This document shows positions 22,131-58,110 of a stretch of DNA of 64,000 nucleotides, piece by piece. The notes under the pieces were generated by a model. The model saw only the letters and a list, made by a program, of their open reading frames with translations. It searched no databases and was not told the origin of the DNA. How positions within the stretch are numbered: position 1 is the first letter of the stretch; each line of letters begins with the position of its first letter. The DNA is from Takakia lepidozioides. Taxonomy: Eukaryota > Plantae > Bryophyta. The DNA is taken from the NCBI GenBank assembly GCA_030704615.1, contig CM060732.1, forward strand, positions 47,802,001 to 47,866,000, given 5' to 3'. Position numbers and translations under genes: made by a program.

Positions 22131-22379
22131 GGCACAAACGCCTGCTCAGTCAATGACAAGGCCTCATCCTGCCCCATCATCTCATCCTTGAGGACTTCCT
22201 CAACCCGAGAAAAATCCCCAACCTCATCCATCACCGCCGCCCTGGCTGCCAACTCCATCTGAACCTCGAGCACCTCCCACGTGTGCCATGGATACCTGCA
22301 CCCCGTGGTCCTCACATGCTCGCCCCCACTCACTGCCTGTACCGTCTCGATAGGTAGAGAGACCATCGAGGGAAGTATA

Positions 22380-23380
22380 CTCCGCACTCTGCGTTGCTCA
22401 GCCATAGCCAAATGATAATCCAGGTCAAGCAATTGAGATCCATTGTTTGCCCCAACACCTGACGACGTGATACCTCAGAAAGAGACGGCACCGCCGTGGT
22501 ACCAGTGGTAAAACCCATTGCCCGCTCACGCTCGTCAGCATTAGGCTCCACTAACTGCTGCAACTGAGCATCCCACAGGAGGCCAGGTCCACTATCCCGG
22601 AAAGCATGCGATCCTGGGAAGCTGAGCAGTGTAGGTAATGCTGCTCGTGGTTGACCCCTTGTTGACCACTGCCAAAGGCGAACGGTCATCGTGTCTCACA
22701 CGCTGAGACTGCCTCCCTGTGTCCAAAATGCTATCCACTGTGAGGTGTGCTGGCCGCTGCACCCCATCAAATGCACGCTTGAGCAGTGCGGGTGGCATCA
22801 AGTTAGTCCACCATAGCCGTGGACGATGAGCTCGTGACCCCACTGTAGCTGCATCTAGCAACACTGCTGACCCAAGCCACGACCGGACTTGATGCACACT
22901 GGCCATCACCCTGGCCCAAGAATCGTCCATCAGTGACACATTCTCCAAGATGTATGCTGGAGATACAGCTTGATGAAATTGCAAGTGGCGCAAAATCCGC
23001 ACCATCTCCCAAAACAGACCCGACCTCGAGTCTCGCAATCCATTGCCATGCCCGGCTGATGAATGCCCTTGGCAGGGCCAACCTGCCACTACTAGATCAA
23101 TGGAGCCAACCTGCTCCAAATTCTGCGCCCCCAGCAACAAAATGTCTGCTGGCAATGCCTGCTGATATCCACGAACTGCAGACACTGGCAACAACTCAGG
23201 GTACTGTTGCACCAACTGAGCAACATGGCGAAGTGAAACATGTCGTGCAATCTCATCCCTCTCCACATACAGGTAACGCCGAACTCGTACACCTGCCTGT
23301 AACACAGCAGCCAATCCGGTGCTGATCCCGCCAAACAAGTCCAGAAGACAAATGTCTTCATCCGGATACTGCCACACAAT
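22380..23380 (-). pseudogene. C5 cytosine DNA methyltransferase domain (DNMT3-like), copy 1
   Basis: Motif I LLDLFGGISTG, II YVERD, IV DLVVAGWPCQGHSSAG, VI YILENV and VIII AHRPRLWWTNL lie in one frame (ORF 22592-23377). IX ERERAMGF and X RRQVLGQTMDLN follow after a frameshift. Confidence 0.93.
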
Positions 23381-24385
23381 TGGCTAGGAGCACCACTACC
23401 CCGTGGTGTCTTCTTAGCAAATCCCACCATGACCACTCGTTCCTCCACCATGTTGAGCTCTATCCACTCTGCCAGCAAAAACACATTTTGCTAAGGTGGG
23501 TTGGGCCGCTTATAGGAGAGTTGCATCCCGCACCCTTCTCCTCAGCTCCTTGTCCAATATCCCATACCGGAATTGGACTGCCTGAGCTTCCGTAACCCCT
23601 TGGGTTACATTTATCAAGCGCCTCATGCGAGTGAAAGCCTCCCTCAAGCTCTCAGTCGGCTTCCGTTGGAACTCTTGCAAGCTCCGCAACTTCTCTGTCC
23701 TCATCCCTTGGTAGTTCCCTCTTAACTCTTCGAAGAACTCCACAACAGGGTTGAAGGTAGACACCGCCACTGGTGTTGGTGCAGCAGTAGCTTGGGTGGA
23801 CGTCGTAGCTACGGTATCACCAGTCCCACTAGTCCCACTGCTGCTTGTTGAAGCTGTCGGTGCAGCGGCAGCTAAAGCCACTGCCCTCGTGGCTCTAGTG
23901 CCCCTAGTGATGGAGACATAGTCGGGTGACCAGTACATCCTCCACTCCTCGATCTCAACCTCATGCCCCCGCCTGAACTCATGGTAATCATCCATAGGCG
24001 GCCCCTCAAGGTGCTGAAACAGCCCCTTCCATGCCATGAAAGGCGTAAATAGTTGTGGATTGCGTATTTGCTGCAAATCACACCAACTATCAAACTCTTG
24101 GATAAAATCATCCAACTCGATGGTGCCCACTGCCCCAGAGTACCTTCATAGCCCCTTGGTAGCTCCACAGATCTCCTCCATTGTGTCCCACAACAATGGC
24201 AAGGAAACAACTTGCACCGCCGGTGTGAGTCCTCCTGATTCACAATCCGAATCAGAACCTTCCGTAGAAGACACGGGAGGTGAAAGTGGCCTAAACCACA
24301 CACCTCATCTCGTGTACCCACTAGTATCGTTAGTGCTCGAACCGGCACTGTCCCCAGCAACTAGTGGCACCTCCGTGTTGACAAA
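23381..24385 (-). pseudogene. Retrotransposon gag (capsid-like) region, copy 1
   Basis: ELDDFIQEFDSW..FFEELRGNY..LRSLQEFQRKPTESLREAFTRMRRL..QAVQF.YGIL. Contains in-frame stops. Confidence 0.8.
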
Positions 24386-25059
24386 CTGTCACTCAACCGG
24401 TCATGAACATGTCCCTAACCCCCCTTCCACAAGGTAACTGGGTAGAGAACCTGTTGCGGCTTATGGTTTGGAATACTAGGTTCCTAACATAGCCTACACC
24501 TGCACCTGCATCCACCGCAAGCACTCCTATGGTTGGCTGGTCATCACCTCCAACCTCACCACAGGAGAAACAATGATGGTCTGACTGGTCATCACCCCAG
24601 CCTCACCATCGACAGCATGCTCTAGGACTGGCCGGTGATCAAATCCGGACCAATCACCTATAAAAACAAACGCCCACACAAAACTAACATGGTGCACAGT
24701 CAAGCATGCAGGTATGGAGGGGATCCAAACACAAGAAATCAGAATGACAACTCCCCCATACCAAAAACAACTCCACGGTGTTGCTCCTGCAAGGATACCC
24801 CAGCCCAAACCCGGACTGACTCTTGCCTCCACCTACGGAAAGGTCTTGGCCTAATGAGAGGGTGGAAAACTACGAGGAAGAGAAGCTAAAGCAATGCCTA
24901 ACCCCAGCATGCCCTCATCCCAACTCTTTTTCTCCTCTCTTCCCTCACTTGCATGACCATGGAAATTTCATGAAGATACTCCTCAAACTGCCCTCCACGA
25001 GCTTCAAAATTCGGCCTTCAAGACATGCCTGTCCTTAGGCAGTCCACCAGTGCCTCCAC

Positions 25060-25606
25060 GAGTCAGCACAGGCCCAGGGCAGTGACAGGCTGTGGCCTGT
25101 GTGGGGCTGTGACGGCTGTGACCAGTGATCTGTGTACACATGTCACAGGGTCACAGCCCCATGGGCCACAGCCTGTCACAACCCCCAAGGCCACAGGCAC
25201 AGCCTGTCACAGCCCTACACAGGTCACAGGGGTCACGGCCCCAAAGGCCACAGCCTGTCACAGCCTGTCACAGCCTGTCACAGCCTGTCACAGCCCGTCA
25301 CAGCCCTACACAGGTCAGAGGGCACAGCCCAAAGCCACAAAGTCATAGCCTATCACAATCCATCACAGCCCTACACAGGTCACAGGGGCATAGCCTATCA
25401 CAGCCCTACACAGGTCACAAGGGTCACAGCCCCAAAGACCACAGCCCGACAGGCCACAGGACTTAGCCTGTCACAGCCCCTCACAGCGTGTCACAGCTCG
25501 CCACAGCCTGTCACAGCCCCTCATAGCCCATCACAGCCCCACAGGCCACAGGGCACAGCCCCTCACAGCCCCTCACAGCCCCAGAGGCCACATGGCACAA
25601 CCTGTC
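25060..25606. repeat. Low-complexity tandem array of (tg)tcacagcc-type units in the retroelement leader
   Basis: Dozens of cacagcc/tgtcacag/cacagg units. Counterpart at 35680-36200. Confidence 0.9.
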
Positions 25607-27112
25607 ACTTCAAGAGCCATGCTCAATCTAGGCTTGAGGTTGAAACCCCAACTCAGAACACGCTCTACAAGTGTCGGACTGTCACATAACAGCAGATCAG
25701 CCCCTTACCTTCTCTTCTAGTTCTCTAAAGCTTGAAAACAAAAAGCCCAATGGACTGAAGGCATGCTCCACACATGCCCACTCTCACCACAAGAGAATCA
25801 GCCCCTTTGCTTTCTTTCTTGCACCCACCAACCTGAAAATACAAGCTTCAGCGGGCTAGAAGCATGCTCCACACATGCCCTACAGGGAAACCAGCCCCTT
25901 CCTTCCTTTCTTGCACTCCCAAACTTGAAAGTACAAGCCTTCAACAGGCCGAAAGCATGCTCCATACATGCATTGCCCTCACATAAGGGAAGTCAGCCCT
26001 TCCCTCTTCCTTGCTTGCCCTCCAAGCTTGAAGATGGAAGCTTCAATGAGCTGAATACATGCTCCACACATGCAACCTCTTCACACAAAAGGTATCAGCC
26101 CCTATCTTGGCTCCTTGGCTCATTGATGCTCTCTAAGACAAGACTAAGCACTCCACAGCCTTTGCCAAGCTTCTGAAACCCTAAGGCTTACATTTCCAGC
26201 CACAAGACACTCCTCTTGTGGTGCAAGAGCTCTTCTTCCAAGCTCTGAAACCCTAGGTGTACATTCCATTGTCTTGCCGCACCTCTTAGCTCCTGTTCCA
26301 GCCCTGCTCTTGCCATGACGAGCCCTCTCAATGCTGAAGCTCGAGATTGAAACCCAATCTCAATGTACTCCACAAAGTGCACTGATTTGCCCCAAGCCAA
26401 ATCAGCCCTTTCGCTTGGTCTTGCAATCCTTCACACAATGAAAGCTCGCATTCCCAAGGCTAGTTCTCAGATTTGCCCCCAAAGCCACTATAACCTGCTC
26501 TTGACTGGTCTTCTTCCCAATCATGCTTGCTCATGCATGAACACAATCTGAAACCATCAAGGTGCTCTGGAATTACCTGCAGCATAGTGCTTTCATCTCT
26601 GAAGCTGAAGATCGAATGCCAAGGTCTACCACCTCGTAACCCACATCACCTCCGCTTCTAACAACCAAGAGCTCCACGGTGCTCCTTGCATAACAACCTG
26701 GTTTCTCTCATTCTCAAGCAAAAACCACAACTGCTACAACTAACTCGTATCTGGCACTCACAGATACGAGCTCATCTTTCTCGAGTGATAAAGAAGAAGA
26801 ATACAAGCACAAGCTCATGCGAGCTCACGAAGCTGAAGCATAAACTCATGCATATATAACCTCATCACTCAAATAGAAGTCAAGCCAAGTGCACCCCACG
26901 CCATGGGGAATCCACACTACGGTGCCATAGCTAGGCGCGGTGAGGCTCAACTCGAGAAAGATGAGCCTCCCGCGTTTGCTATGAAGATAACCACTCTAGG
27001 GCCTAAATCTGCCTTGACCCCTAGATTGACACTTGGGCCAATCCCAAATGTCAATATGTAAAAGCTAGCTATTTCCTAGCTAGTTTCACACTAGTGGTAA
27101 AATAACTTGACA

Positions 27113-29403
27113 GGACCATGATGCATTCTTTAGCGGGGAAGCCAGTAAAATATTGTCAGCCACGAGGAACTTCCACCAGCCACCCTCACGACCCATGAAG
27201 CGCGGAATCCATTTTGCCAAAAGGGCTGTTACTTGGGTTTTTGGATCAAGCACCCCCAGCCCCCCCTACTTTTTAGTAAGGCATATTTGGTTCCAGGAAA
27301 CCTGGGGTCTTCTTTGATGCGACGACGATTCAGCCCCCCAAACATAGTTCCTGAGCAACTTTATAATTTGTCTAATCTGTTGCTTGTTCGGCCTCCATGA
27401 GCTAGCATAGAACCAAATTCCAGCCGAAATAATTTGGTTAGTGGTGAGGGCTCTGCCTGTGATGGTAAGATGCTTTGACCCCCAGTGAGCCATCCTGTGT
27501 TTGAGGGTTGAGAGAATAGGCTCAAATCTCTGCTGGTCAGTGAGATCTATGCCAAAAGTGTAGCCCAAAAGCTTCGTGGTTTGTCCTGGTTTCAGCCATT
27601 TAAGCCCATGTTGGTGACCCCAGTTTGGATTGGCACCAAGGTCCGACTTAGAGAGATCACCTACGAGCAAAGCGCAGGTTTTGCTCCAGTTTACTTTGAA
27701 TCTAGAAGCGGAGCAGAAGATATGGAGTGTCTCAACGGTTCTGTCCAGGTTGCGTGATTGGGCTTGAAGAATAAAAGTATCGTCATCAAACATTGAGTTG
27801 ACCACTTGAGCTGGTTGTTGGGTGATGTAATTATTGACTGAGCCCTGAGAGTTGAGCCTTATGTTGAAGGGCATAACCCAATGCATCCGCTACTATAAGA
27901 AAGAGAAACGGAGACAATGGACAGCCTTGTCGAACAGATCTTTGTAGAGGGAAGGATTTAGATAGTGCCCCATTTACCACCACTCTGCTGGTGGAAGTAC
28001 ATAGCTGAATCTTGACCCAATGGGAGAAAGACTGAGGGAATCCAATTTTGTGCATGGCTGCCAACAGAAAAGACCATTCTACCTTGTCAAAGGCCTTTTC
28101 AAAATCTAAGAGAAGGAGAGCTATGGCTGGGTTTGTTTTTTTGGCATAACCAGGGATTTCATGAGCCAGAAGCAAGTTGTCCATGATGTAACGGCCCTTA
28201 ATGAAACCTGTTTGATTGGGTCTGATGAGAGTGGGCAGAAGGGGTTGGAGGCGAAGGGCTAAAGCCTTGGCTATGATTTTGTATGCTACATTGAGCAAGG
28301 TGATGGGTCTATAATTGGAGAGGTTGGTTCTATCACCCTTTTTGTACAACAACGTTATAATTCCTTGAGACATTGCAGCTGACATCATCCGCTGGCTAAA
28401 GATAAAGTTAGCCATTTGAGTGCAGTCTGCCGAGAGCTCTGGCCAGAGGGCTGTATAAAATTCCACCGTCATTCCATCGATACCTGGGGCCTTGTTGTTC
28501 TTAAGCTTATGAAGGGCTTCTTCCAGCTCCATGTCCGTGAATTCCCCCTCCAGACCTTCCGCAGAGGTAGGGTTCAGGTAGTGGGTGTAGTTTGCAAGCA
28601 GGCATTTTGCAAAGGGGTGGGATCGAGGCCTTGAAGGTCACTTTGATATAAGGCTTTGAAGTGGTTGGGAGCCAGCAGAGCTAGATCCTTAGGATTCGAG
28701 AATAAGATCTCTGATGTCTGGTCAGTCAGTTCTGTGATTTGTTGGGAAGCTTTCCTGAGCTTTGATTTCTCAAAAAAGTATTTCATCATCTTTTCTCCCT
28801 TCGTCGACCAGTTCACTCCAAGATGACTGAACCTGCATGCTGCCAAGCCTGGATAAGTCCCAGCTTGAAGGGGGGCAATTTAAGGAGGATACTATTGAGT
28901 TTGTACACCCCTCTGCCCCTACGCTGTGTATCTGGGATATTTATCTCCATTGCAATTGGTGCATGGTCGAATCCCAGAGGGAATGGCTGCTGCGGCAGCC
29001 TCTTGGACCATTGAACTATATCAAATGATATATAAGCTCTATCTAGACGTGCCATCTGCAGGTTGTCAAGGGTCCGATTGTTTGTCCATGTAAACGTGAG
29101 GTCATTGGGCTCGTGAGAGAGTGGAGTCGCTTCCACCAGGTTGTGGTTTTGAGTACAGATAGTCCACTGCTCTAGGTCCTCAGAGCTTTGGTTGAAATCC
29201 TGAGAGCCCCTCCTGTCTTGGAGCGACTCCACCATATTAAAATCACCCATCAGAATCCAAGAATCCACGTTTGATCGAGCCAACATTTTGTTTGACAATG
29301 CCTCCCAGAGGTCTCTCCTCTCTGACTGGGTGTTAGGGGCATATATGTTCAATATGCCCAAAGCCTTTATTGTTTGGGAGCTGCATTGAGCCGGAATAGT
29401 CAA
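27113..29403 (-). mobile_element. L1/Tx1-like LINE ORF2 relic (AP endonuclease plus reverse transcriptase), 5'-truncated
   Basis: Endonuclease: NIYAPN, ILMGDFN, FTW, ARLDRAY, DHAPI. RT: KAPGIDG, YRPITLLN..YKIIAK, LDFEKAFDKVEW, RQGCPLSPFLF, FDDDT (degenerate), KVNWSKT, VSWNQIC..K*GGLG. Several frameshifts. Confidence 0.95.
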
Positions 29404-29647
29404 CCATGGGGACTATGTGTATCTGCAGCAGACAACACCAACGACCTTGGATGTCACAGCAGGGCGTGTGATTCTAAGGATCAGGGAGGTGTTGCCTTCA
29501 GGAGTGTTGATTCTGGAAGGTCGAGATGGCATGGTATGGAAGGATCATGTGCGCAATTGTGTGCCATGTCACCTTCCACATGTGGATGGGAGGATAGATC
29601 CCAACCTTGCAGTGGTACCTACAGGGTTGCGTTGCATGCTATGTGGA
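29404..29647 (+). mobile_element. Fragment of a related Gypsy-like element (integrase C-terminus to PHD start)
   Basis: DYVYLQQTTPTTLDVTAGRVILRIREVLPSGVLILEGRDG..WKDHVRNCVPCHLPHVDGRIDPNLAVVPTGLRCMLCG is homologous to 42403-42637 but diverged at synonymous sites. Confidence 0.9.
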
Positions 29648-31369: not shown

Positions 31370-32902
31370 CAAGACTTATGTCTATCTCTTGCAGGAATGC
31401 ATCAAGATGAAAGAGCTACCAGAGGCAAAGTACCTACATTATCAAGCCAAACATATTTCTATATAACAGCCAATCAACATGTATGCCAACTGCGGGAGTG
31501 AACGAGATATTTTTACAGGGAATATAATGATGGCTGGATATGCCAATCGTAGGTATTGCAGGGAAGCTTTGAAGGTCTATGAGCAAATGATATGGGAAGG
31601 CGTGTCACCTGACCGGGTCACATTTGTCACTGGTCTTAGGGTGTGTGCCAGCCTAGGAGCCCTAGAGAAGGGCAAACGGGTCCATGCTGACATCATCAAA
31701 TCTAGAATTGCACCAGATATCATGCTGGACAATGCTTACTTGCCACGTCTATCAAATGCAGGAGCATAGAAGATGCACATCGAGTTTTAAGCAAGATGGC
31801 TCAATGAAAAATGGTTTCGTGGAGTGCAATGACTGCAGGATGTCCTCAACATGGTGGTAGGTAGGCTTTTGAAACGTATAGAGGACACGATGGGGGTAAG
31901 GTCACGTTCATGTGTTAATGCGTGTATCAGTTTGGCAGCCCTGGAATTGACTCTCACATCATCAAAAGTGGAGCTGAGCCTAGTATCATTCTGGATTATA
32001 TCCTTGTCGACATGTATGCCAAATGCGGGAACATCAGGATTGCATGGCAAGTCTTCGACAGTATGGCTGAATGAGATGTGGTCTAATGGAATAGGATGAT
32101 GACAAGATATGCTCAGCATGGGGGTGGTAGGGAGGCTTTGGAGACCTATGAGCAGATGAAACAGCCTAGGGTGACACCCAACCAGGTCACGTTCGTTTGC
32201 ACTCTTCATGCATGTGTGAGCCTTACAGCTCTGGAGAAGGGCGAATCGGTCCATGCTGACATCATCAAAGCTGGAATTACATCAACTGTCATGATAGACA
32301 ATAGACACTACCCTTTGTCATCATGTGTGCCAAATGAAGAAGCATGAAGTATGAAAATCTCGTGTTTGAATATGGCTCAACAAGATATAATCTCATAGAG
32401 TACAATAATGCCCAATGGGGGTCTGGTCGGGAGGCTTCGGAGACCTACAAGGAAATGATACGAAAAGGGGTGACACAGGTGCTCAATGCATGTGCCAACC
32501 TGGCAGCTTGGAGAAGGGCAGAGAGATTCATGCTGACAGTATCAAAGCTGGGATTAACGACGATATCATTTTGTACACAGCCCTTGTCAATATGCGTCAA
32601 TATGTACATGAAATGTGGGAACATGAAGGATGCACATAGAGTTCTCAACAATGTAGCTGAAGTCTCTTGGAACACGATCATATGCGCAAAGTGGGTATGG
32701 TTAAGGGCCCTGGAATTTTTTGAACAAATACAACAGGAAGGGTTGAAGCCGAATGGGATCACTGTCATGTTCTCTCTGCACGCAACCATGTAGGCCTAGT
32801 GTATAAAAGCAGGTATTACTTCGATTCCCTAACTCAAGTTCATGCCTACATAGAAGCTTTTTGGCTGCATCGTGGACTTTCTTGACCATGCAGGGCAATT
32901 GG
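31370..32902 (+). pseudogene. PLS-class PPR pseudogene, N-terminal and repeat part
   Basis: TYVYLLQEC.., MYANCG..MMAGYA..EALKVYEQM..EGVSPDRVTFV..LRVCASLGALEKGKRVH and further frameshifted P/L/S repeats, ending VDFLDHAGQLD (cf. VDLLGRAGxLD). Confidence 0.9.
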
Positions 32903-33822
32903 ATGCTTGAGGCGTGCATTGTAAGTGAGTTTGATGTGATTATTCATGCATTATTAAGCTTTAGGTTGATTGATGGGTGCAGATTGCGGCTCTCTTCTAC
33001 ACACTGAAGCACTCTCAAACAATCGAGAATCAAGCAAGTAAGATTTGATTCTTTGGCACACTTACATGTTCTTTTTTTGCTCTTTCACACAATGGATAAG
33101 GAAACTATTCCTAATCAGAAGGGAAACCATGAGTGGATAGAATCCATGATCGTGGTTTGGTAATGGAAGCAATATCACAATGGAAGAATATTTTTAAATA
33201 ATATCTCAAGCCAAGATCCTAAAAAAATGACATGGAAATTGCCTCCATCAACAGGAAAAAACACTTATGCTTGGTGTGCTTTCTTCCATGGCTCCCAATT
33301 GAGTATAACATGTCTCCATCACATTATACAAGGAATTCATGATCAAGGTTTCTAGCTATTACACATAGAGAGGCTTCTCCATAGACAGGCTTCTCTTTGG
33401 AGTATGTTAGAGATAGAGAATTCATGATCAAGGTTTATAGCTAATACACATAGAGAGGTTTCTTCATAGAGAGGCTTCCTTTTGGAGTATGCTAGAGAGG
33501 GAGACATATACCTATTACACATATAAACTGGCACTAGTATACAAGGTTTGTGTCCAAAAAGCATTTTACAGGGGATTCATGATCAAAGTTTCCATATTAT
33601 ATATAATGCATAGTTGAGTGTATGGGAGAGGCTTCTTTATGGAGCATGCTAGAGAGGGGTACTATAGATTTGTTGAACGTGGAAATTGTCATACTGTAGG
33701 GTATTTGTTAATACAAACTACTTCATAGGTTCAATCCATCATCATAGTTTCCATGGTATACATTTGGGTGTAGGGATGTGATAGGCTACTAGGAGTTTGC
33801 TAAAGAGATAGAGTGTAGATTT

Positions 33823-34148
33823 TGTCAAGTTATTTTACCACTAGTGTGAAACTAGCTAGGAAATAGCTAACTTTTACATATTGATATTTGGGATTGGCCC
33901 AAGTGTCAATCCAGGGGTCAAGGCAGATTTAGGCCCTAGAGTGGTTATCTTCATGGCAAGCGCGGGAGGCTCATCTTTCTCGAGTTGAGCCTCACCGCGC
34001 CTAGCTATGGCGCCGTAGTGTGGATTCCCCATGGCGTGGGGTGCACTTGGCTTGACTTGTATTTGAGTGATGAGTTTATATATGCATGAGTTTATGCTTC
34101 AGCTTTGTGAGCTCGCATGAGTTTGTGCTTGTATTCTTCTTCTTTATC
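33823..34148 (+). repeat. Terminal repeat A1 (copy A2 at 43206-43532; third copy inverted, ending at 27112)
   Basis: A1 and A2 differ by about 10 substitutions and 1 indel by eye. Contains a TATA-like tttatatat near 34076. Confidence 0.95.
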
Positions 34149-35679
34149 ACTCGAGAAAGATGAGCTCGTATCTGTGAGTGCCAGATACGAGTTAGTTGTA
34201 GCAGTTGTGGTTTTTGCTTGAGAATGAGAGAAACCAGGTTGTTATGCAAGGAGCACCGTGGAGCTCTTGGTTGTTAGAAGCGGAGGCGATGTGGTTACGA
34301 GGGGTAGACCTTGGCATTCGATCTTCAGCTTCAGAGATGAAAGCACCATGCAGGTAATTCCAGAGCACCTTGATGGTTTCAGATTGTGTACATGCATGAG
34401 CAAGCACGATTGGGAAGAGGACCAGTCAAGAGCAGGTATAGTGGCTTTGGTGGCAAAGCTGAGAACTGGCCTTGGGAATGCGAGCTTTCATTGTGTGAAG
34501 GATTGCAAGACCAAGCGAAAGGGCTGATTTGGCTTGGGGCAAATCAGTGCGCTTTGTGGAGTATGTTGAGAGTGGGTTTCAATCTTGAGCTTCAGCATTG
34601 AGGGGGCTCTTGTCATGGCAAGAACAGGGCTGGAACAGGAGCTAAGACGTGCGGCAAGGCCATGGAATGTGCACCTAGGGGTTTCAGAGCTTGGAAGAAG
34701 AGCTCTTGCACCACAAGAGGAGTGTCTTGTGGCTGGAAATGTAAGCCTTAGGGTTTCAGGAGCTTGGCAAAGGCTGTGGAGTGCTTAGTCTTGTCTTAGA
34801 GAGCATCAAGAGCCAAGGAGCCAAGATAGGGGGCTGATACCTCTTGTGTGAAGAGGTTGCATGTGTGGAGCATGTATTCAGCTCATTGAAGCTTCCATCT
34901 TCAAGCTTGGAGGGCAAGCAAGGAAGAGGGAAGGGCTGACTTCCCTTATGTGAGGGCAATGCATGTGTGGAGCATGCTTTCGGCTTGTTGAAGGCTTGTA
35001 CTTTCAAGTTTGGGAGTGCAAGAAAGGAAGGAAGGGGCTGGTTTCCCTGTAGGGCATGTGTGGAGCATGCTTCCAGCCCGATGAAGCTTGTATTTTCAGG
35101 TTGGTGGGTGCAAGAAATGAAGCAAAGGGGCTGATTCTCTTGTGGTGAGAGTGGGGCATGTGTGGAGCATGCCTTCAGTCCATTGGGCTTTTGTTTTCAA
35201 GCTTTAGAGAACTAGAAAGAATGTAAGGGGCTGATCTGCTCTTATGTGACAGTCCGACACTTGTAGAGCGTGTTCTTAGTTGGGGTTTCAACTCAAGCCT
35301 AGATAGAGCATGGCTCTTGAAGTGGCAGATAGGGGGATGGAATAGACTCTAAAACAGATGCTATGGCCAAGGAAACGCTGGAATGAGTGCTCACAAGGGC
35401 TGGAAACCACAAGGCTTGGTTGTTTGCCATTGAGTTTAGTGGCGTGTTTGGGGAGTCTGAGTGAGAAAGAAGGCTTGGTTGTGGCAACCATCTTCCTCAT
35501 GGCTTAGGGCTACTATGGTGGTGTGTGGGAGCCGAAAGAGCAAGAATACCTTGCTGATTTCTTCACAGCCGCCATAGCTCGGTGCAAAGAAGCCTAGAGT
35601 CCAAGAGACACAAACCCTAGCTTGGCGTGGCTAAACCCCTTGGAGAAATGGCTAAACTGCCATGAGTGGCCATGGATGG

Positions 35680-36200
35680 GGCCTGTGGCTGTGGCTGTGG
35701 CCTGTGGCCTGTGGGGCTGTGACGGGCCGGGCCGGGCTGTGACACTGTGAGGCCACACCCTGTGAGGGGCTATGACAGGCTAGGGCCTGTGGGGCTGTGA
35801 TGGGCTGAGGGGCCTGTGAGGGGCTGTGACCCTGTGAGGGCTGTGACAGGTGTGTGGCTGTGAGGGGCTGTGAAGGGCTGTGACGGGTGTGAGGGGCTGT
35901 GACCCCTGTGACCGCCCGCTGTGACCTGAGGGGCACTGTGACAGGTTGTGGCCTTTGGGGCTGTGACCCTGTGACCTTTGTAGGGTTGTGACAGGCTGTG
36001 CCTGTTTGGGGTTGTGATGGGCTGTGACAGGCTGTGACATGTGGCCTTTGGGGTTGTGGGCTGTGATGCTGCCTGTGGGGCTGTGACCTGTGACCCCTGT
36101 GTAGGGCTGTGACAGGCTGTCTGTGGGGCTGTGATGGCTGTTGTGGGCCTGTGCTGGTCTGTGGTGGCCTGTGCTGACTCGTGGACGGCCTGTGCTGACT
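35680..36200. repeat. Low-complexity ggctgtga tandem array in the retroelement leader
   Basis: Reverse-complement counterpart of 25060-25606 with a different unit arrangement. Confidence 0.9.
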
Positions 36201-36879
36201 CGTGGAGGCACTGGTGGACTGCCTAAGGACTGGCATGTGGTCTTGAAGGCCAAATTTTGAAGCTCGTGGAGGGCGGTTTGAGGAGTATCTTCATGATATT
36301 CCCATGGTCATGCAAGTGAGGGAAAAGAGGAGAGGAAGAGTGTTGGGATGAGGGCATGCTGGGGTTAGGCATTGCTTTAGCTTCTCTTCCTCGTAGTTTC
36401 CACCCTCTCATTAGGCCAAGACCTTTCCGTAGGTGGAGGCAAGAGTCAGTCCGGGTTTGGGCTGGGGTGTCCTTGCAGGAGCAACACCGTGGAGTTGTTT
36501 TTGGTGTGGGGGAGTTGTCGTTCTGATTTCTTGTGTTTGGATCCCCTCCATACCTGCATGCTTGACTGTGCGCCATGCTAGTTTTGTGTGGGCGCTTGTT
36601 TTTATAGGTGATTGGTCCGGATTTGATCTCATCGGCCAGTCCTAGAGCATGTTGTCGATGGTGAGGCTGGGGTGATGACCAGCCAGACCATCATTGTTTC
36701 TCCTGTGAGGTTGGAGGTGATGACCAGCCAACCATAGGAGTGCTTTGGTGGATGCAGGTACAGGTGTAGGCTATGTTAGGAACTTAGTATTCCAAACCAT
36801 AAGCCGCAACAGGTTCTCTACCCGGTTACCTTGTGGAGAGGGGGTTAGGGACATGTTCATGACCGGTTGAGTGTCAACA

Positions 36880-38446
36880 CGGAGTACCACTAGTTGCTGG
36901 GGACAGTGCCGGTTCGAGCACTAGCGATACTAGTGGGTACACGAGACGAGGTGTGCGGTTTAGGCCACCTTCACCTCCTGTGTCTTCTACGGAAGGTTCT
37001 GATTCGGATTGTGAATCAGGAGGACTCATACCGGCGGTGCAAGTTGTTTCCTTGCCATTGTTGTGGGACACAATGGAGGAGATGTATGGAGCTACCAAGG
37101 GGCCACGAAGGTACTCTGGGGCGGTGGGCACCATCGAGTTGGATGATTTTATCCAAGAGTTTGATAGTTGGTGTGATTTGCAGCAAATGCGCAATCCACA
37201 ACTATTTACGCCTTTCATGGCATGGAAGGGGCTGTTTCAGCACCTTGAGGGGCCGCCTATGGATGATTACCATGAGTTCAGGTGGGGGCATGAGGTTGAG
37301 ATCGAGGAGTGGAGGATGTACTGGTCACCCGACTATGTCTCCATCACTAGGGGCACTAGAGCCATGAGGGCAGCTACACCTGCCGCTGCACCGGCAGCTT
37401 CAGCAAGCAGCAGTGGGGGGGACTGGTGGTACCGTAGCTACGACGTCCACCCAAGCCACTACCGCACCAGCACTAGTACCCGTGCCTGCCTTCAACCCTG
37501 TTGTGGAGTTCTTCGAAGAGTTGAGAGGGAACTACCAAGGGTGAGGACAGAGAAGTTGCGGAGCTTGCAAGAGTTCCAACGGAAGCCGACTGAGAGCTTG
37601 AGGGAGGCTTTCACTCGCATGAGGCGCTTGATAAATGTAACCCAGGGGTTACGGAAGCTCAGGCAGTCCAATTCTGGTATGGGATATTGGACAAGGAGCT
37701 GAGGAGAAGGGTGCGGGATGCAACTCTCCTACAAGCGGCCCAACCCACCTTAGCAAATGTTTTTGCTGGCAGAGCGGATAGAGCTCAACATGGTGGAGGA
37801 ACGAGTGGTCATGGTGGGATTTGCTAAGGAGACACCACGGGGTAGTGGTGCTCCTAGCCAACCACTACCTCAACGTGCTCAAGGCAACAAGGGGGCTCAG
37901 GTGAAGCTCAGGGAAGGGCAGAGAGGACCTCAGATGCAGGGGTCTCTCCTTCATTTGCAAGCCAACAACGGGCGGATGTGGTGTGTTGGACATGTGGAGG
38001 ACCCCATGTCAAGAAGGATTGCCCAGAGGGAGGCAAAGGGCCGGCACATGCACAGCCTGCACAGTTGCAGTGTGGGGCATTGTGGCAAGCACGGGCATGG
38101 AGAGGCCCAGTGTTATGGTTTGCATCCCGAGTTGCGCCCAGGCCAGTTCCAAGGGAACAATGGTGGCCGGGGGCGAGGGGAGCAGCCCAAAGAGGACGAG
38201 GTGGCCAGGCACGGGTGTAGGCCAAGGGCAAGCTCAACATGGCCAAGGACGCGGAGGTCAGGTGTTGACCAAGGCATGGCCAACCGGCTTCAGCAGCTAG
38301 AGCAGAGGCTCGCTGCCATGGCTACAGCTCAGGTGGTACCGGCTCCAAGGCCGGATGGTCCACCTCCTGCTCCTGAGGGAGGAGATATGGGAGCTATGGG
38401 ATTCATGTGCGGAGCAGCACTACCACTAGTGCACACGAGTTCCTGA
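36880..38446 (+). pseudogene. gag with two zinc knuckles (frameshifted)
   Basis: Capsid-like segment as in copy 1, plus knuckles CWTCGGPHVKKDC and CGHCGKHGHGEAQC. Confidence 0.85.
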
Positions 38447-39010
38447 GCCACGAGGTGCAGAGGTGGAGTTGGATCCACAGCGTGGGGAGGCAAGCCGTCA
38501 GGCTAGGCTCCTCAGTCATTCACATTGGCGGAGACAGTGTCGACGCCATCCATGGCACCTAGTTTCGCCCGACTGTTACCGAGGCGGAGGTTACTATGCC
38601 ATTGGGGAGAGCTACACGGGTAGCACCACTACCTAGTGTTGCCAAGGCTACGGCAGCTAGTGTGCTGCTGGGAGTGGCCACATCTGTGTGTCAGGCTCAT
38701 TGTTCTCGGCTACCATGATTGCGACGCCGGGGTAAGACCAGCTGAGGTGTTCAGGCTGGCAGCTACACTCTGTGAGAGTGGGGAGGTTACTTCATCTTCT
38801 GCGGAGATAGTGGGAGGGTGTAGTGCCGGAGGGATCCTCGGATTTGAGGGTCAAGACTGCCACGGCGGCGCCATGGCAAGCTGCAGCTGCCAGGTTGGAG
38901 CTGCCAGCTAGGCCAGCCATTGAACGCGCCATGGTGACACCTGGAGTTGTCATGTTAGACAACCAGGATGGCATTTTCTGTTTGAGTGGACCGCAGGCAA
39001 GAGGGGGCCA

Positions 39011-39300
39011 CTGCGGGTCTTGTTGGACTCGGGAGCTCAGCCATTGATGCTGGGCAGAGCTGCTATTGCAGGCTTGGGCCTCACGGAGGCGGATATGGAG
39101 CCTTGTCCTTTCCAGATACAGACATCTCTGGAGGATCGGAGAGCAGGCATGGACACGACGTGAGTTGGCTATCAGACTACGGCCGGATCACCCTACAGAT
39201 GGCTCAGTGATGCGAGCCAAGGCCATTGTGACAGACGCGGTCTCGTACGATGTCCTGGTTGGTGGGGCAATGTTGTACCCATGGGCTTCACCCTGGATTT
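39011..39300 (+). pseudogene. Retroviral-type aspartic protease
   Basis: LRVLLDSGAQPLMLG (DSG at 39025-39033) and downstream YDVLVGG. Confidence 0.85.
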
Positions 39301-39687
39301 TGGGGGAGGAGTCAGCTTCCTATAGGCCTGGATGGCAGTCAGGGGAGGGCCGGCGTGTGCAGCTCCCTGTGACGTTCATAGGAGGAGTTGCGGTTGCCCA
39401 GCGGGCAAGATGCCGACACTAGCAGCATTCACAGCTGCAGTGACTTGGCCTGGAGAGAAACGCTCATTCAGAGGATGACACCTCCGGAACGGATGACATG
39501 TATGGTATGGCGGAGTTGCCTGCCATGGTTGCTCAGACTCCATTGTGGGGCACGAGCAAGGATTTGCACGGGTTGCTGATCGACGGGTGCAACAAGCCTG
39601 GGTGGAGGCTTTTGTACCATCAAGAGAGGAGAGAGTGCGGGGATTGCACCAGGACCACCTCAGTTGTCTCCATTGGACACCACACCT

Positions 39688-40690
39688 ATTGTGTGGCAGT
39701 ATCCGGATGAAGGCATTTGTCTTCTGGATTTGTTTGGCGGGATCAACACCGGATTGGCTGCTGTGTTACAGGCAGTGTACGAGTTCGGCGTTACCTATAT
39801 GTGGAGAGGGATGAGACTGCACAACGCGTTTCACTTTGCCATGTTGCTCAGTTGGTGCAGCGGTACCCTGAGTTGTTGCCGGTGTCTGCAGTTCGTGGAT
39901 ATCAGCAGGCCTTGCCAGCAGACATTTCGTTGCTGGGGGCGCAAGATTTGGAGCGGGTTGGCTCCATTGATCTGGTAGTGGCAGGTTGGCCCTGCCAAGG
40001 GCATTCATCAGCCGGGCATGGCAATGGATTGCGAGACTCGAGGTCGGGTCTGTTTTGGGAGATGGTGCGGGTTTTGCGCCACTTGCAGCTTCATCAAGCT
40101 GTATCTCCAGCATACATCTTGGAGAATGTGCCACTGATGGGCGATTCTCGGGCCAGGATGATGGCCAGTGTGCATCAAGTCCGGTCGTGGCTTGGGTCAG
40201 CAGTTGTTTAGATGCAGCTATAGTGGGGTCACGGGCTCATCGTCCACGGCTATGGTGGACTAACTTGATGCCACCCGCATTGCTCAAGCGTGCATTTGAT
40301 GGGGTGCAGCGGCCAGCACACCTCACAGTGGATAGCATTTTGGACACAGGGAGGCAGTCTCAGCGTGTGAGACACGATGACCGTTCGCCTTTGGCAGTGG
40401 TCAACAAGGTGGTCAACCACGAGCAACATTACCTACACTGCTCAGCTTCCCAGGATCGCATGCTTTCCGGGATTGTGGACTGGCTCCTGTGGGATGCTCA
40501 GTTGCAGCAGTTAGTGGAGCTAATGCTGACGAGCATGAGGGGGAACGGGTTTTACCACTGGTACCACGGCGGGTGCCGTCTCTTTTCTGAGGCAGCACGT
40601 CGTCAGGTGTTGGGGCAAGCAATGGATCTCAATTGCTTGACCTGCATTATCAGCTTGGCTATGGCTGAGCAACGCAGAGTGCGGGAGTGC
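39688..40690 (+). pseudogene. C5 cytosine DNA methyltransferase domain (DNMT3-like), copy 2
   Basis: LLDLFGGINTG, YVERDE, DLVVAGWPCQG (PCQ 39990-39998), YILENV, AHRPRLWWTNL, RRQVLGQAMDLN, spread over several frameshifts. Confidence 0.93.
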
Positions 40691-41009
40691 ACTTCCCTCG
40701 CTGTCTCTCTGCCTACCGAGACGGTACAGGCAGTGAGTGGGGGCGAGCATGTGAGGACGGGGTAGGCATCCATGGCACACGTGGGAGGTGCTCGAGGTTC
40801 AGAGGGAGTTGGCAGCCAAGGTGCGGTGATGGATGAGGTGGGGATTTTTCTCGGTTGAGGACGTCCTCGAGGATGAGATGATGGGGCAAGATGAGGCCTT
40901 GTCATTGACTGAGTAGGTAGGGAGTACTGCTCAAGAGGTTGCAACATAGCAACCACTGGATGCGTCCTCTATCTCTAAGCCCAGTGGACTTAAGGTTGTA
41001 GTTACGGAG

Positions 41010-41250
41010 GACAGTTGGGAGCCTGACATTGGATCCATTGTCACCGGAGGAAAGAGACGACATATACGGTGGTTCCTGAGGGCTTACAGGAATTGTTTTG
41101 CCTTCAGTTTGAAGGACTTGGGAGCACTGAAGGGTCAAGAGATCCATATTGAGTTGGTCACTGACACGCTAATCTTTCGGAGACCCTATAGATACAGTGA
41201 CATGAAGAGTCTTTGATTCAGATGAGGACTCAAGATCTCTGGGAGGTTAG
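41010..41250 (+). pseudogene. N-terminal remnant of Gypsy-type reverse transcriptase
   Basis: FLRAYRNCFAFSLKDLGALKGQEIHIELVTDTLIFRRPYRYS is the typical pre-RT segment. No YxDD or RNase H follows. Confidence 0.75.
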
Positions 41251-41259
41251 GTTGGACCT

Positions 41260-42767
41260 ACAACAGGGATGACTGTAGACGGAGTGTCTGAGGACCCTGA
41301 GGCTAGTGATGAGCCAGGTGGTACCAGAGATATACATGAGGATTCGGCTGTGTTGGACTACCTCCGTACTGGAGACATGGCAGCCACTGTGACTGCCAAG
41401 GAGAGGGATCGGATCCTGCAACGAGCCAAGAGGTTCAAATGGGAGGGGATACACCTGCTCCGAGTATGGGAGGATGGTCGGGTGAGGATTGTGCCTCACC
41501 CCACACAGCGTGCACGGTTAGTGCGGCATGCCCATGAGGAGTTGGGGCATTTGGAGTGCGACGCACTCACAGTTTACTGCAGGGGCAGTATTGGTGGCGT
41601 GGTATGTATATACAGAGGTGCAACAGTTCGTGGCTAGGTGCATGGTGTGTGACAGGGTGCGTGCTTAATTCAACGCCCCTACACCACAGTTGCATCCTTT
41701 ACCAATCATGGGATTGGGCTACAGGTGGAGTCTTGACTTTGCAGGACTGTTGCCACTAACTATGCGCCACCACAGATATGTGTTGGTGATGGTGGAGCAC
41801 TTCTCCAAGTGGATTGAGTTGGTTCCATTGCCTGACAAGGCTAGTGAGGGGGCTGCGTATGCATTCTTGGATCATGTGCTTAGCCGATTCGGTGCTCCAG
41901 CTGAGGTACTCACGGACCAAGGGAGAGAGTTCTTGGGGGAGTTTCAGGCTTTGTGTGATAAAGCCTTGATAGACCACCGCACCACTTCTCGGGATCATCC
42001 TGAGGCCGATGGCTTGGCAGAGAGAGTTGTTCAGACGGTGAAGAGGGGGTTGCGCAAGTATGACTTGCAGAAATGACACCTAGGAGATTGGGATCTTCAG
42101 GTGCCTTGGTTAGCCATGGGCTGCAGGTTCAGCAAACAAGCATCATTTGCATCTTTCTCACCATATTTCCTTATCTTTGGCCGAGAGCCGGATTTACCTG
42201 CAGCCATTCGTAGGGACACTGCTCAAGTCCTTAACCTTGATGATCCGGACGTGTGGGTACGTGCATGTGATCAGCGTGCAGAGTTGTTCAAGAAAGTCAT
42301 GCCCATGGCTTTTGAGAACCTTGTCATTGCACAACACCGTGATACGTTGAGGTATGCCACTATACGTGGTGGAGGATATCTTCATGGGGTTCGGAGGTTT
42401 AGCCCTGGTGACTATGTTTATTTGGAGCAGACTGCTCCTACGACCCTGGATGTCACTGCAGGGCGTGTTATTCTGAGGGTTCGAGAGGTGTTGCCTTCAG
42501 GAGTCCTGATCTTGGAGGCTCGGGATGGCATGACTTGGAAGGACCATGTGCGTAATTGTGTGTCATGTCACCTTCAATGGCAGAGTTGACCTAAACTTGG
42601 CAGTGGTACCTGCAGGTTTGAGGTGCATGCTCTGTGGGTCTGCCAAAGGGGCAGCCACCATGCTGATGTGTGATCGATGCTCAAGAGGTTGGCATATGGG
42701 ATGCTTGACACCACCTCTTGAGAAGGTTCCTGGTGGAGATTGGTTGTGTCCACACTGCTTGGGATAG
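41260..42767 (+). pseudogene. DDE integrase (HHCC finger, catalytic core) with C-terminal PHD finger
   Basis: HAHEELGH..YWWRGM..CMVC; WSLDFAG, VLTDQGREF, HPEADGLAERVVQT; SPYFLIFGRE; PHD CMLCG..MLMCDRCSRGWHMGCLTPPLEKVPGGDWLCPHC. Frameshifts and one stop. Confidence 0.93.
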
Positions 42768-43027
42768 TGGCAGTGGACATGACTGGAGGCAGCTAACAAG
42801 ACATGAGAGGCCAAGCTCATAGGAGTCAATACACGAGATCCCAAGCTCAAGTTCACAGGTTGCAAGACGGCGATTAACGATGGGGCAACTCTTGCACCCG
42901 GCCTCTTGATCTATCGAGTTTGAGTGTAGTAGGGACAGTGGTGGAGGACTTAGTGAGGCTATGGTAACTATCACATCTTGTGGCTACTTGAACTTAGAGG
43001 GACCTAAGCACCAGCTAGGGGGGCGAT

Positions 43028-43723
43028 TGTATGGACTAGTGACTGCCATAGTGGGCAACATAGTGGCAGCCTAGTGACTGACTAGTTGTAGCCTAGTGGC
43101 TGGACTAGTGGTGGACTAGTGGTATACTAGTGTGTGGTGTGCACATGTGTTGTGTGGTTTATGACAACGATGTAGTTGTGTAGCGATATGTATGCGCACG
43201 ACAACTGTCAAGTTATTTTTACCACTAGTGTGAAACTAGCTAGGAAATAGCTAGCTTTTACATATTGATATTTGGGATTGGCCCAAGTTTCAATCCAGGG
43301 GTCAAGGCAGATTTAGGCCCTGGAGTGGTTATCTTCACGGCAAGCGCGGGAAGCTCATCTTTCTCGAGTTCAGCCTCACCACGCCTAGCTATGGTGTCGT
43401 AGTGTGGATTCCCCATGGCGTGGGGTGCACTTGGCTTGACTTGTATTTGAGTGATGAGTTTATATATGCATGAGTTTATGCTTCAGCTTTGTGAGCTCGC
43501 ATGAGCTTGTGCTTGTATTCTTCTTCTTTATCTATTGTGTGGACTAGTGACTGCCATAGTGGGCAGCATAGTGGCAGCCTAGTAACTGACTAGTTGTAGC
43601 CGAGTGGTTGGACTAGTGGCTGGACTAGTGGTGGACTAGTGGTATACTAGTGTGTGGTGTGCACATGTGTTGTGTGGTTTTGGACAGCGATGTAGTTGTG
43701 TAGCGATATGTATGCGCACGACA
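43028..43723 (+). repeat. Right-end repeat block B1 (43028-43203) - ac - A2 (43206-43532) - tat - B2 (43536-43723)
   Basis: B1 and B2 both run TGT(a/g)TGGACTAGT...GCGCACGACA. B2 has one extra 12-nt unit. Confidence 0.95.
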
Positions 43724-44399
43724 ATTTATTGAACACGGAAAATATATTCATGATCAAGGTTTTTAACTACTTCCCTGGAAGAAAGCACACCAAGCATAAG
43801 TGTGTTTTCTCTGTTGATGGAGGCAGTTTCCATGTCATTTTTTTAAGATCTTGGCTTGAGATATTATTTAAAAATCTTCTTTCATTGTGATATTGTTTCC
43901 ATTACCAAACCACGATCGTGGATTCTATCCACTCATGGTTTCCCTTCTGATTAGGAATAGTTTCATTATCCATTGTGTGAAAGAGCAAAAAATGAACATG
44001 TAAGTGGGTCAAAGAATCAAATCTTACTTGCTTGATTCTCGATTGTTTGAGAGTGCTTCAGTGTGTAGAAGAGAGCCGCAATCTGCACCCATCAATCAAT
44101 CTAAAGCTTAATAAAGCATGAATAATCGCATCAAACTTACAATGCACGCCTCAAGCATACAACTCATCTCCAAAAAAAACTCCATGCTCAAGCGAGCGAG
44201 CGAGCCGTCGCTCTAAATTCCTAAACCCTAAACCCTTGAATCTTCATCCTAAAATTTGGACCATTGACCACCCAAAGATCTAAAGTGACCATAGACCATG
44301 GCTGGACGCATGGGACATGACAAGGCATAAGACATGGTGCATTGATGATCATGGAGCAAGGTGGGCATGGCTATTGAGGGTCATGGCGGCTCATGGCTA

Positions 44400-44859
44400 T
44401 TAGAGGATGTTACAACTTATGTACTTATATCCCATATCTACGCTGCAACAAAGGTGCGAAAATGATGAAGGTCAGAGGTGTCCGAAAGGAGCAACGTTGC
44501 AGCTGCACTGAGATGAAAACAGATCCACGAACTAGGGAAATATACGCTGAGCTGGAAAGATTGTTTGGGCACATGAAGGCGGCTGGGTATGTGCTTCGCA
44601 CATGCTTATATTGCATGATGGGGAGAAGGAACATGAGTTGTCTCTTTGCCACCACAGTGAGAAGCTGGCCATTGCTTTTGATCTCATCAACACTCCTCTT
44701 GGCACACATCTCCATGTCATCAAGACCTTTCGTGTCTGGTGTGACTGCCACACGGCCAGTAACTTTATGTCAAAGATTTTGGACACAATCGCTGTATGGG
44801 ATGGCAACCGCTCTCAACACTTTCAAGATGCAGTTAGCCAACATACGGAGAAAACCTGA
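44400..44859 (+). pseudogene. E/E+/DYW deaminase region of a PPR pseudogene (probably the continuation of 31370-32902)
   Basis: MMKVRGVRKEQRCS, DPRTREIYAELERL..MKAAGYV, HHSEKLAIAF, VIKTFRVWCDCHTA, DGNRSQHFQD. Frameshifted, and lacks the terminal DYW. Confidence 0.88.

Positions 44860-46596: not shown

Positions 46597-58110
<11,514 letters not shown>

Follow-up and report, generated by a model that had tools for sequence, protein, structure and literature searches.

Decayed Ty3/gypsy copies from a probable moss carry a DNMT3-type methyltransferase before a conserved, probably leaky stop codon

The 64-kb stretch of DNA studied here (the window) contains two decayed copies of a Ty3/gypsy retrotransposon that carries a cytosine methyltransferase of the DNMT3 type. 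We regard it as moderately probable that they are dead copies of a KnitGypsy-Dnmt3-type element whose DNMT3 closes a Gag-protease-DNMT frame before a conserved, likely leaky stop, and that particles would take up the enzyme, made at Gag level, which would then methylate the new cDNA. The kind of element is already known as KnitGypsy-Dnmt3 (available text of PMC5890265); the stop, self-priming, polypurine tract, 4-bp duplications and circle joints described below were not found in the literature searched.

The element and its methyltransferase domain

The element copies comprise the following features, with the strand in brackets.

33823-43723 (+): copy 1, a DNMT-bearing Ty3/gypsy element of about 9.9 kb, decayed, with termini TGTC...GACA
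33819-33822 and 43724-43727 (+): target-site duplication of copy 1, 4 bp ATTT, left and right
34830-36206 (+): long leader holding tandem arrays of a 102-bp unit (x4) and of 10-bp GC-rich units
37073-38440 (+): gag-like region, frameshifted, collinear with Marchantia Mp4g09160
37984-38022 and 38081-38113 (+): two zinc-knuckle-like motifs in the gag-like region
39020-39037 (+): aspartic protease active-site motif LLDSGA
39685-40690 (+): DNMT3-type C5 methyltransferase domain, motifs I-X, frameshift-broken in copy 1
40947-40955 (+): family-conserved in-frame stop TAG CAA CCA (CAR-YYA context), the end of ORF1 and a predicted readthrough site
40950-41246 (+): RT lead-in, with about 1.3 kb of RT/RNase H missing beyond 41246
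41290-42590 (+): broken integrase with zinc-binding motif, rve core and C-terminal part
42624-42761 (+): PHD finger at the integrase C-terminus (PF00628, E 3e-12)
22141-27112 (-): copy 2 of the element, with the same 5' end as copy 1 and a truncated 3' end
29404-29646 (+): third fragment, reaching from the integrase C-terminus into the start of the PHD; it belongs to a more distant relative (78% nucleotide identity)

Copies 1 and 2 are both dead elements. The methyltransferase motifs of copy 1 are scattered over all three frames, and 18 small indels separate the two copies over 39685-40917. The gypsy order protease-RT-RNase H-integrase is present and the RT is Ty3-type; RT core and RNase H are deleted in copy 1 and retained in sister copies and relatives, and contigs of runs X12 and X18 span 41246/41249 with 1311 extra letters. 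In copy 2, whose methyltransferase lies at 22141-23383, a deletion joins 37861 to 39685 (copy-1 numbering) with loss of the gag end and the protease; the copy ends after the methyltransferase, before the RT lead-in.

Other sequences surround the copies. A decayed LINE (endonuclease and RT; 27266-29412, minus strand) adjoins the 5' end of copy 2 and abuts the third element fragment, and a 101-bp direct repeat follows it at 29646 and 30343. Copy 1 is flanked by a 394-bp inverted repeat (95%; 32899-33291 and 43773-44162) with 85-bp tandem units within its left part; it may have inserted into a foldback-like repeat or a local inversion. An isolated DYW deaminase fragment of a PPR RNA-editing factor (44551-44856, plus strand; PF14432, E 2e-18) is apparently degenerate. 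Beyond it lies a host ELF6/REF6-type JmjC demethylase gene (46597-58140, minus strand), with a JmjN exon at 57217-58140, C2H2 zinc fingers at 46600-47151 and very long open stretches (1186, 380 and 539 codons) without a Pfam match. Among the matches listed (best 120 of 317), identity of the JmjN exon reaches 60% with Ceratodon and 59% with Sphagnum, against 37-49% with vascular plants; liverworts and hornworts do not appear there. This closeness to mosses upholds the land-plant host that had been supposed, which is probably a moss.

The sequence-only reading had claimed unpermuted C5-methyltransferase motifs at this place and a domain present in both copies, and both points hold. Three-frame translation of copy 1 gives motifs I (LLDLFGG, 39721-39741), II (39792-39812), III (39918-39935), IV (GWPCQ, 39984-39998), VI (YILENV, 40113-40130), VIII (RAHRPRLWWTNL, 40232-40267), IX (from 40426) and X (LGQAMDL, 40610-40630), in unpermuted order over 39721-40630 and with the catalytic Cys, the Glu of ENV and the Args of motif VIII. 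PF00145 recognises the domain in copy 1 (E 4e-13, 49.8 bits) and in copy 2 (22592-23380, minus strand; E 3e-13, 50.2 bits), both above the gathering cut-off of 22. A fixed position between protease and RT had been claimed as well: copy 1 agrees, with the protease at 39020 and a match to the RT lead-in at 41094 in its three-frame translation, but copy 2 cannot confirm it, since its protease is deleted and its sequence is cut off before the lead-in.

Profile scores and a structural model support a predicted enzyme of DNMT3 type, with DRM, DNMT2, DNMT1/CMT and bacterial enzymes all more remote. A profile built from 26 natural sequences scores DNMT3A at 104 bits across the whole domain, a plant DRM-type chain at 56 bits over part of it, HhaI at 43 bits and DNMT2 at about 40 bits; its 57 matches include no DNMT1 or CMT. 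With an AlphaFold model of the intact relative L022 (pLDDT 90.8), the Foldseek matches listed were all DNMT3A/B/C, the best (TM 0.73/0.83) being to DNMT3A, so the original call of DNMT3-like rather than DRM is borne out. The ESM Atlas returned only generic PF00145 clusters. A DRM identity was rejected on motif order, which is not permuted (DRM has VI-X before I-V). Fold and motifs best match DNMT3A/B, but unlike host DNMT3 and DRM the element's enzyme has no introns, no PWWP or ADD domain and no DRM permutation, and it sits in a retroelement.

Across 143 new 50%-identity representatives, read by alignment column, the catalytic Cys is found in 139/140 and the Glu in 143/143, and the motif VIII Arg pair in 143/143 and 141/143. 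The domain is about 40 aa longer than that of DNMT3A and 20-22% identical to it, and the Klebsormidium domain gave no methylation in yeast, a result that its authors call inconclusive, human DNMT3B being likewise inactive in that assay (available text of PMC5890265). Length, divergence and the negative assay would suit a fold kept for some role other than 5-methylcytosine, be it nucleic-acid binding, RNA methylation or the trapping of cytosines to protect cDNA. We find such a role quite improbable: the catalytic residues and the SAM-binding motif are all conserved across families that are only about 40% identical, and DNMT2, at about 40 bits, scores well below DNMT3 at 104.

Relatives and age of the domain

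Named relatives come from Marchantia polymorpha (many loci), Calypogeia fissa, four species of Sphagnum, Klebsormidium nitens, Closterium and Scenedesmus, and vascular plants are absent from the named matches; all compared loci were collected via their DNMT. The trees are quick trees, with 104 of 174 rows kept in the DNMT tree after de-replication. In it, 82 element DNMTs form a single clade (SH-aLRT 100, against outgroups from viral and metagenome contigs in a tree without host DNMT3). The window's DNMT groups with the named liverwort and Sphagnum sequences in a set of 23 rows, and the K. nitens proteins KFL_009030040 and KFL_013780020 also belong to the element clade. Viral contigs (17 loci) gave short, weak matches and no member of the clade; no host DNMT3 was seen among 20 looked up of at least 150 representative matches.

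Two layouts occur: PR-DNMT-RT-RH-INT-PHD, and RT-RH-DNMT-INT-PHD, which is complete in one frame in 32 of the 143 representatives, including Scenedesmus. The second architecture was observed in L067, L072, L073, L076-L081, L086, L088 and P0319, in frames of up to 3329 codons; one of its representative clusters is named Scenedesmus pol, and L078 and L079 have further long ORFs downstream. RT and DNMT trees (24-25 elements) separate the two layouts alike, except for the long-branch L086, and this shared split argues for an old capture that moved once, not for a fresh host exon.

Pairwise comparison of the window's family with two peat-moss-type families gives a dN/dS of 0.09-0.19 in the DNMT and of about 0.04-0.12 in the integrase core, at a dS close to saturation; copies within a family show DNMT values of 0.56-0.93, attributable to decay after insertion. 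These comparisons support the DNMT domain as a part of the element that is under purifying selection between families. Neutral evolution between families and a recently captured host exon were among the outcomes that could have overturned the original proposal. The former is not seen, and the latter, as a neutral passenger in a few copies, is highly improbable and already largely refuted. The high dN/dS between copies of one family would fit it, as would trees that contain no host DNMT3; but the within-family values reflect post-insertion decay while those between families stay low, the DNMT and RT trees have their main groups in common, and the domain lies within polyproteins from Scenedesmus to mosses.

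With KnitGypsy-Dnmt3 of K. nitens, as far as the available text of PMC5890265 describes it, the element shares the gypsy domains, an unpermuted DNMT3-like domain, purifying selection and DIRS-like repeats; the host there is an alga, whereas here it is a land plant. De Mendoza et al. 2018 present the DNMT as an acquisition in the K. nitens lineage (same text), but the relatives gathered here span chlorophytes to mosses. No land-plant or chlorophyte description of a DNMT-bearing gypsy was found in the literature searched, a scope that leaves aside subscription journals and repeat databases, nor in the available text of PMC12344493 and PMC11982613, the first of which says 'streptophytes' without naming land plants.

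The stop after the methyltransferase

As read from their sequences, the bryophyte families end ORF1 (Gag-PR-DNMT) with the DNMT, followed by a stop and then by RT-RH-IN-PHD. The equivalent position is occupied by the stop in each of the 42 peat-moss-type loci spanning the junction (28 TAG CAA CCC, 12 TAA CAA CCC, 2 one-off variants), which are not independent, coming from few related samples with duplicates of one site included; in these loci the RT lead-in is in frame with the stop, 40 codons downstream. A second family reads TAG CAA CCA (L018) or TAG CAA CTA (L083, L084), with 646 open codons of RT-RH beyond the stop in L083, and L058 reads TAG TAG CCA. Motif X, stop and lead-in share one frame in L021, L022, L026, L018, L083 and L084. 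For the window's family, the differences listed in four runs, including a second organism label, show no change at 40947-40955, an indirect sign, as 17 differences fall outside the listing; another stop, at 40914, is private to copy 1, 99.5% of the X1 depth reading otherwise.

The same boundary appears in proteins. Many full-length Marchantia and metagenome examples run through gag-PR-DNMT and then end (1160-1330 aa), and full-length bryophyte-type proteins terminate 71-116 residues past motif X. A second K. nitens type also terminates directly after the DNMT. Separately, we observe a Klebsormidium-type group (P0138, P0047, P0048, P0140-P0142) in which Gag-PR-DNMT ends 27 residues past motif X, and two Marchantia frames with V-chromosome gene names, Mp_Vg00370 and Mp_Vg00540, that are full-length Gag-PR-DNMT of 1281 aa.

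In KnitGypsy-Dnmt3 the DNMT shares its ORF with the RT, whereas in the bryophyte elements it ends ORF1 at the conserved stop (compared with the available text of PMC5890265); no joint DNMT-RT ORF is seen in the bryophyte families, where the frame is shared and the stop stands between. Because of this stop we take the element for a variant and not for the KnitGypsy-Dnmt3 family itself. The sequence-only reading, which had built the domain into pol, was right about its place between protease and RT; its wording is not supported for the bryophyte families, where the conserved stop parts the domain from the RT frame and makes it the close of ORF1. Whether the lineage was catalogued had been left undecided: in part it is, as KnitGypsy-Dnmt3, but the bryophyte stop layout is not found in the available text of that description (PMC5890265).

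Judging from its context, the stop is likely leaky, with readthrough at UAG-CAA-CCA. CAR-YYA after a stop is the readthrough consensus of TMV, which is where the likeness to TMV lies (available part of PMC2194720), and in-frame stops are a known means of holding Pol below Gag (available part of bioRxiv 2022.12.06.519325). Some fission-yeast Tf1/sushi members have an in-frame stop before pol (available parts of PMC6317226 and bioRxiv 2022.12.06.519325); theirs reads GAA-UGA-CU, whereas the element's follows PR-DNMT in a UAG-CAR-YYA context. In SIRE1 the stop parts pol from env (available part of PMC2829016), but here it parts Gag-PR-DNMT from RT-RH-IN. CARYYA in connection with a retrotransposon yielded nothing in the literature searched.

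In the commonest peat family the codons after the stop are CAA CCC, one letter away from CAR-YYA; a T-rich run precedes the TAG and an ATG lies three codons past it. Such a run and ATG, seen in the peat-1 family, would favour a different account, in which the DNMT works as part of Pol, in cis beside the RT, as de Mendoza et al. and the sequence-only reading saw it, and splicing or reinitiation gets round the stop, or the rare full-length fusion alone matters. We consider this rather unlikely. Several relatives do pass from DNMT to RT without a stop (P0042, P0039 and P0113, of Klebsormidium type, and P0071), RT-RH-DNMT-INT-PHD is in one frame in 32/143 representatives, and the annotated gene models P0007, P0012, P0022 and P0050 skip the stop. 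However, the T-run and ATG are absent from the window's family, from the L018/L083 family and from L058; the CAR-YY context is kept in the window's and L018/L083 families, with L058 one letter off; and the four gene models join at different places each, as expected of ab initio predictions. Since some algal-type relatives lack the stop and a large group has its DNMT placed between RNase H and integrase, the family as a whole does not require Gag-level expression.

Split repeats, integration and the possible role of the enzyme

The ends of copy 1 are built from two repeats, A and B.

33823-34149 (+): repeat A1, 96.6% identical to A2, putatively part of U3 plus R and U5; ends CA
33969-33985 (+): self-primer predicted at the 5' end of the RNA; pairs 17/17 with 34149-34165
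34149-34165 (+): PBS-like sequence directly after A1, without a tRNA-type TGG start
43017-43025 (+): polypurine-tract-like AGGGGGGCG, directly before B1, with a matching G-tract in 9/9 peat-moss-type loci examined
43026-43203 (+): repeat B1, putative start of U3; ends GACA
43200-43209 (+): exact B-A joint GACA + 2 nt + TGTC, the uncut form of both element ends and putative integrase site
43206-43532 (+): repeat A2
43534-43723 (+): repeat B2, after a variable A-B joint (putative circle junction)

The layout A-coding-B-A-B is found in copy 1, L037 and L038, and its 3' half in L028 and L063; an assembly artefact was rejected because the layout recurs in independent contigs. Target duplications measure 4 bp in 5/5 elements with both ends visible. 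The B-A joint is exactly GACA + 2 nt + TGTC in 6/6 elements, and the A-B joints are all different (n = 6), with 9 nt of PBS-like sequence plus filler retained in L043 and an 18-nt filler in L037. All 15 distinct 5' ends begin at A with no B ahead (14 continue into the PBS side; L020 is rearranged). Single-B 3' ends occur in L040, L041 and L045, the last being a likely later deletion, as its flank is the same as that of L063, which has B-A-B. Within families, the comparison of B1/B2 and A1/A2 for concerted evolution was swamped by decay.

Priming by a tRNA was rejected, there being no TGG after A1. Instead, the 17 nt that follow A1 are fully complementary to positions 147-163 of A (shuffle maximum 10). 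The two copies in the window, L030, L038 and L050 all have the 17 pairs, even though 10 of the 17 primer letters differ between families. Among 13 peat loci, three have 17/17, three have 17 with one G-U, and in seven the duplex is imperfect or lost (decayed or deleted; 12-15 of 17 pairs). The peat family has TATAAA 26 nt upstream of the self-primer, and folding locates the duplex at the 5' end of the RNA for each of the two families (z -7.1 and -2.9, from hand-chosen start points). This covarying 17-bp duplex is predicted to follow the Tf1-type pattern of self-priming. Self-priming from the RNA 5' end is predicted for Tf1/sushi and Tcn1 elements too, and Tcn1 occurs in mosses (available parts of PMC6317226 and bioRxiv 2022.12.06.519325); likened by features, however, the present element has a PHD finger where they have a chromodomain, plus split repeats and a DNMT. 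The polypurine tract precedes B1, not A2, and together with the duplex it marks B + 2 nt + A as the putative functional LTR.

This layout would be most simply explained by a 2-LTR circle that integrase cuts open within the upstream LTR. Junctions of 2-LTR circles are a common source of LTR-end sequences and can carry insertions and deletions (available part of PMC13332604). The circle model alone does not account for 5' ends that always lie at A without a preceding B; the two candidate sites differ in both distance and side relative to the circle junction, a difference that might bias which of them is used. A circle model exists for DIRS elements. PAT-like/Ngaro DIRS and SymbioDIRS-Dnmt3, the latter with an active Dnmt3, have the same A-coding-B-A-B arrangement (available text of PMC5890265), but the present element has a DDE integrase, 4-bp duplications, TG..CA ends and a Ty3-type RT, as against the tyrosine recombinase of DIRS. 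Membership of DIRS/PAT-like elements was rejected on the rve integrase and the 4-bp duplications, with no tyrosine recombinase in its place. De Mendoza et al. note the DIRS-like layout of KnitGypsy-Dnmt3, and no explanation of it was found in the available text; nor were priming, polypurine tract, readthrough or a circle model, and PHD has 0 occurrences in the main text (PMC5890265). In the literature searched, split-repeat gypsy elements gave nothing beyond DIRS papers, and circle-junction integration of a retrotransposon gave nothing.

In the preferred reading, ribosomes would occasionally pass UAG-CAA-CCA into RT-RH-IN-PHD, and the protease would release many DNMT copies inside the particle. 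The RNA would self-prime via the 17-bp duplex, Tf1-style, and the plus strand would begin at the tract before B1, with B + 2 nt + A as the true LTR. The cDNA ends would then join into a 2-LTR circle, and integrase would open GACA/NN/TGTC in the upstream LTR to yield A-coding-B-A-B. By pre-methylating the cDNA, the DNMT would let the element enter chromatin already marked. Packaging of the enzyme and cDNA methylation had been proposed in the sequence-only reading, and we infer them here as well. As a separate observation, the B end (43714-43723) keeps two CpGs (CGCACGACA) in both families (L026, L038 and others) despite CpG depletion (o/e 0.44); they fall in the putative integrase site and could be sites on which the element's own enzyme acts.

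In both architectures the integrase terminates in a PHD finger. Its nearest solved structural relatives are those of CHD4, KDM5A/B PHD1, PHF21A, UHRF1 and BAZ2A, which we take to recognise H3 tails that carry no modification, as the ADD domain of DNMT3A itself does. On this structural likeness, the finger likely guides integrase to chromatin. The finger with its kin (CHD4, KDM5A/B PHD1, UHRF1), and the surplus enzyme that Gag-level expression would leave, also give some ground for supposing that the main target is host chromatin, at the insertion site or at sister copies in trans, where a PHD-steered enzyme would shape or dampen silencing rather than act on free cDNA. This is unlikely in our view, as the decay of C to T between copies shows the order usual in plants (CG 0.145, CHG 0.084, CHH 0.033) and the K. 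nitens methylome is ordinary and plant-like (available text of PMC5890265); the CpG/CHG depletion and C-to-T contexts of the element show nothing specific.

A wider history can be put forward only tentatively. A gypsy lineage reaching from chlorophytes to mosses may have taken up a DNMT3 before land plants and kept it in two positions, replicating by reverse transcription that is self-primed, by joining of the ends into a 2-LTR circle and by a DDE-integrase cut inside one LTR; the leaky stop of the bryophyte families may then give a capsid-level DNMT that methylates the circle and possibly settles at which of two equivalent sites it is cut.

De Mendoza et al. left the role of retrotransposon-borne DNMTs open and had no land-plant model (available text of PMC5890265). 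Marchantia polymorpha holds several apparently full-length Gag-PR-DNMT frames (e.g. Mp4g09160, Mp5g06330), which makes that role testable in a genetic model, and a DNMT encoded in ORF1 would be expected in many copies per particle. Counts of DNMTs in bryophyte annotations can be too high on account of such elements, whose split ends would be expected to evade LTR finders. Retroviral 2-LTR circles are generally treated as by-products; if the A-B-A-B layout does reflect integration of a 2-LTR circle, such circles would be the normal substrate of a DDE integrase.
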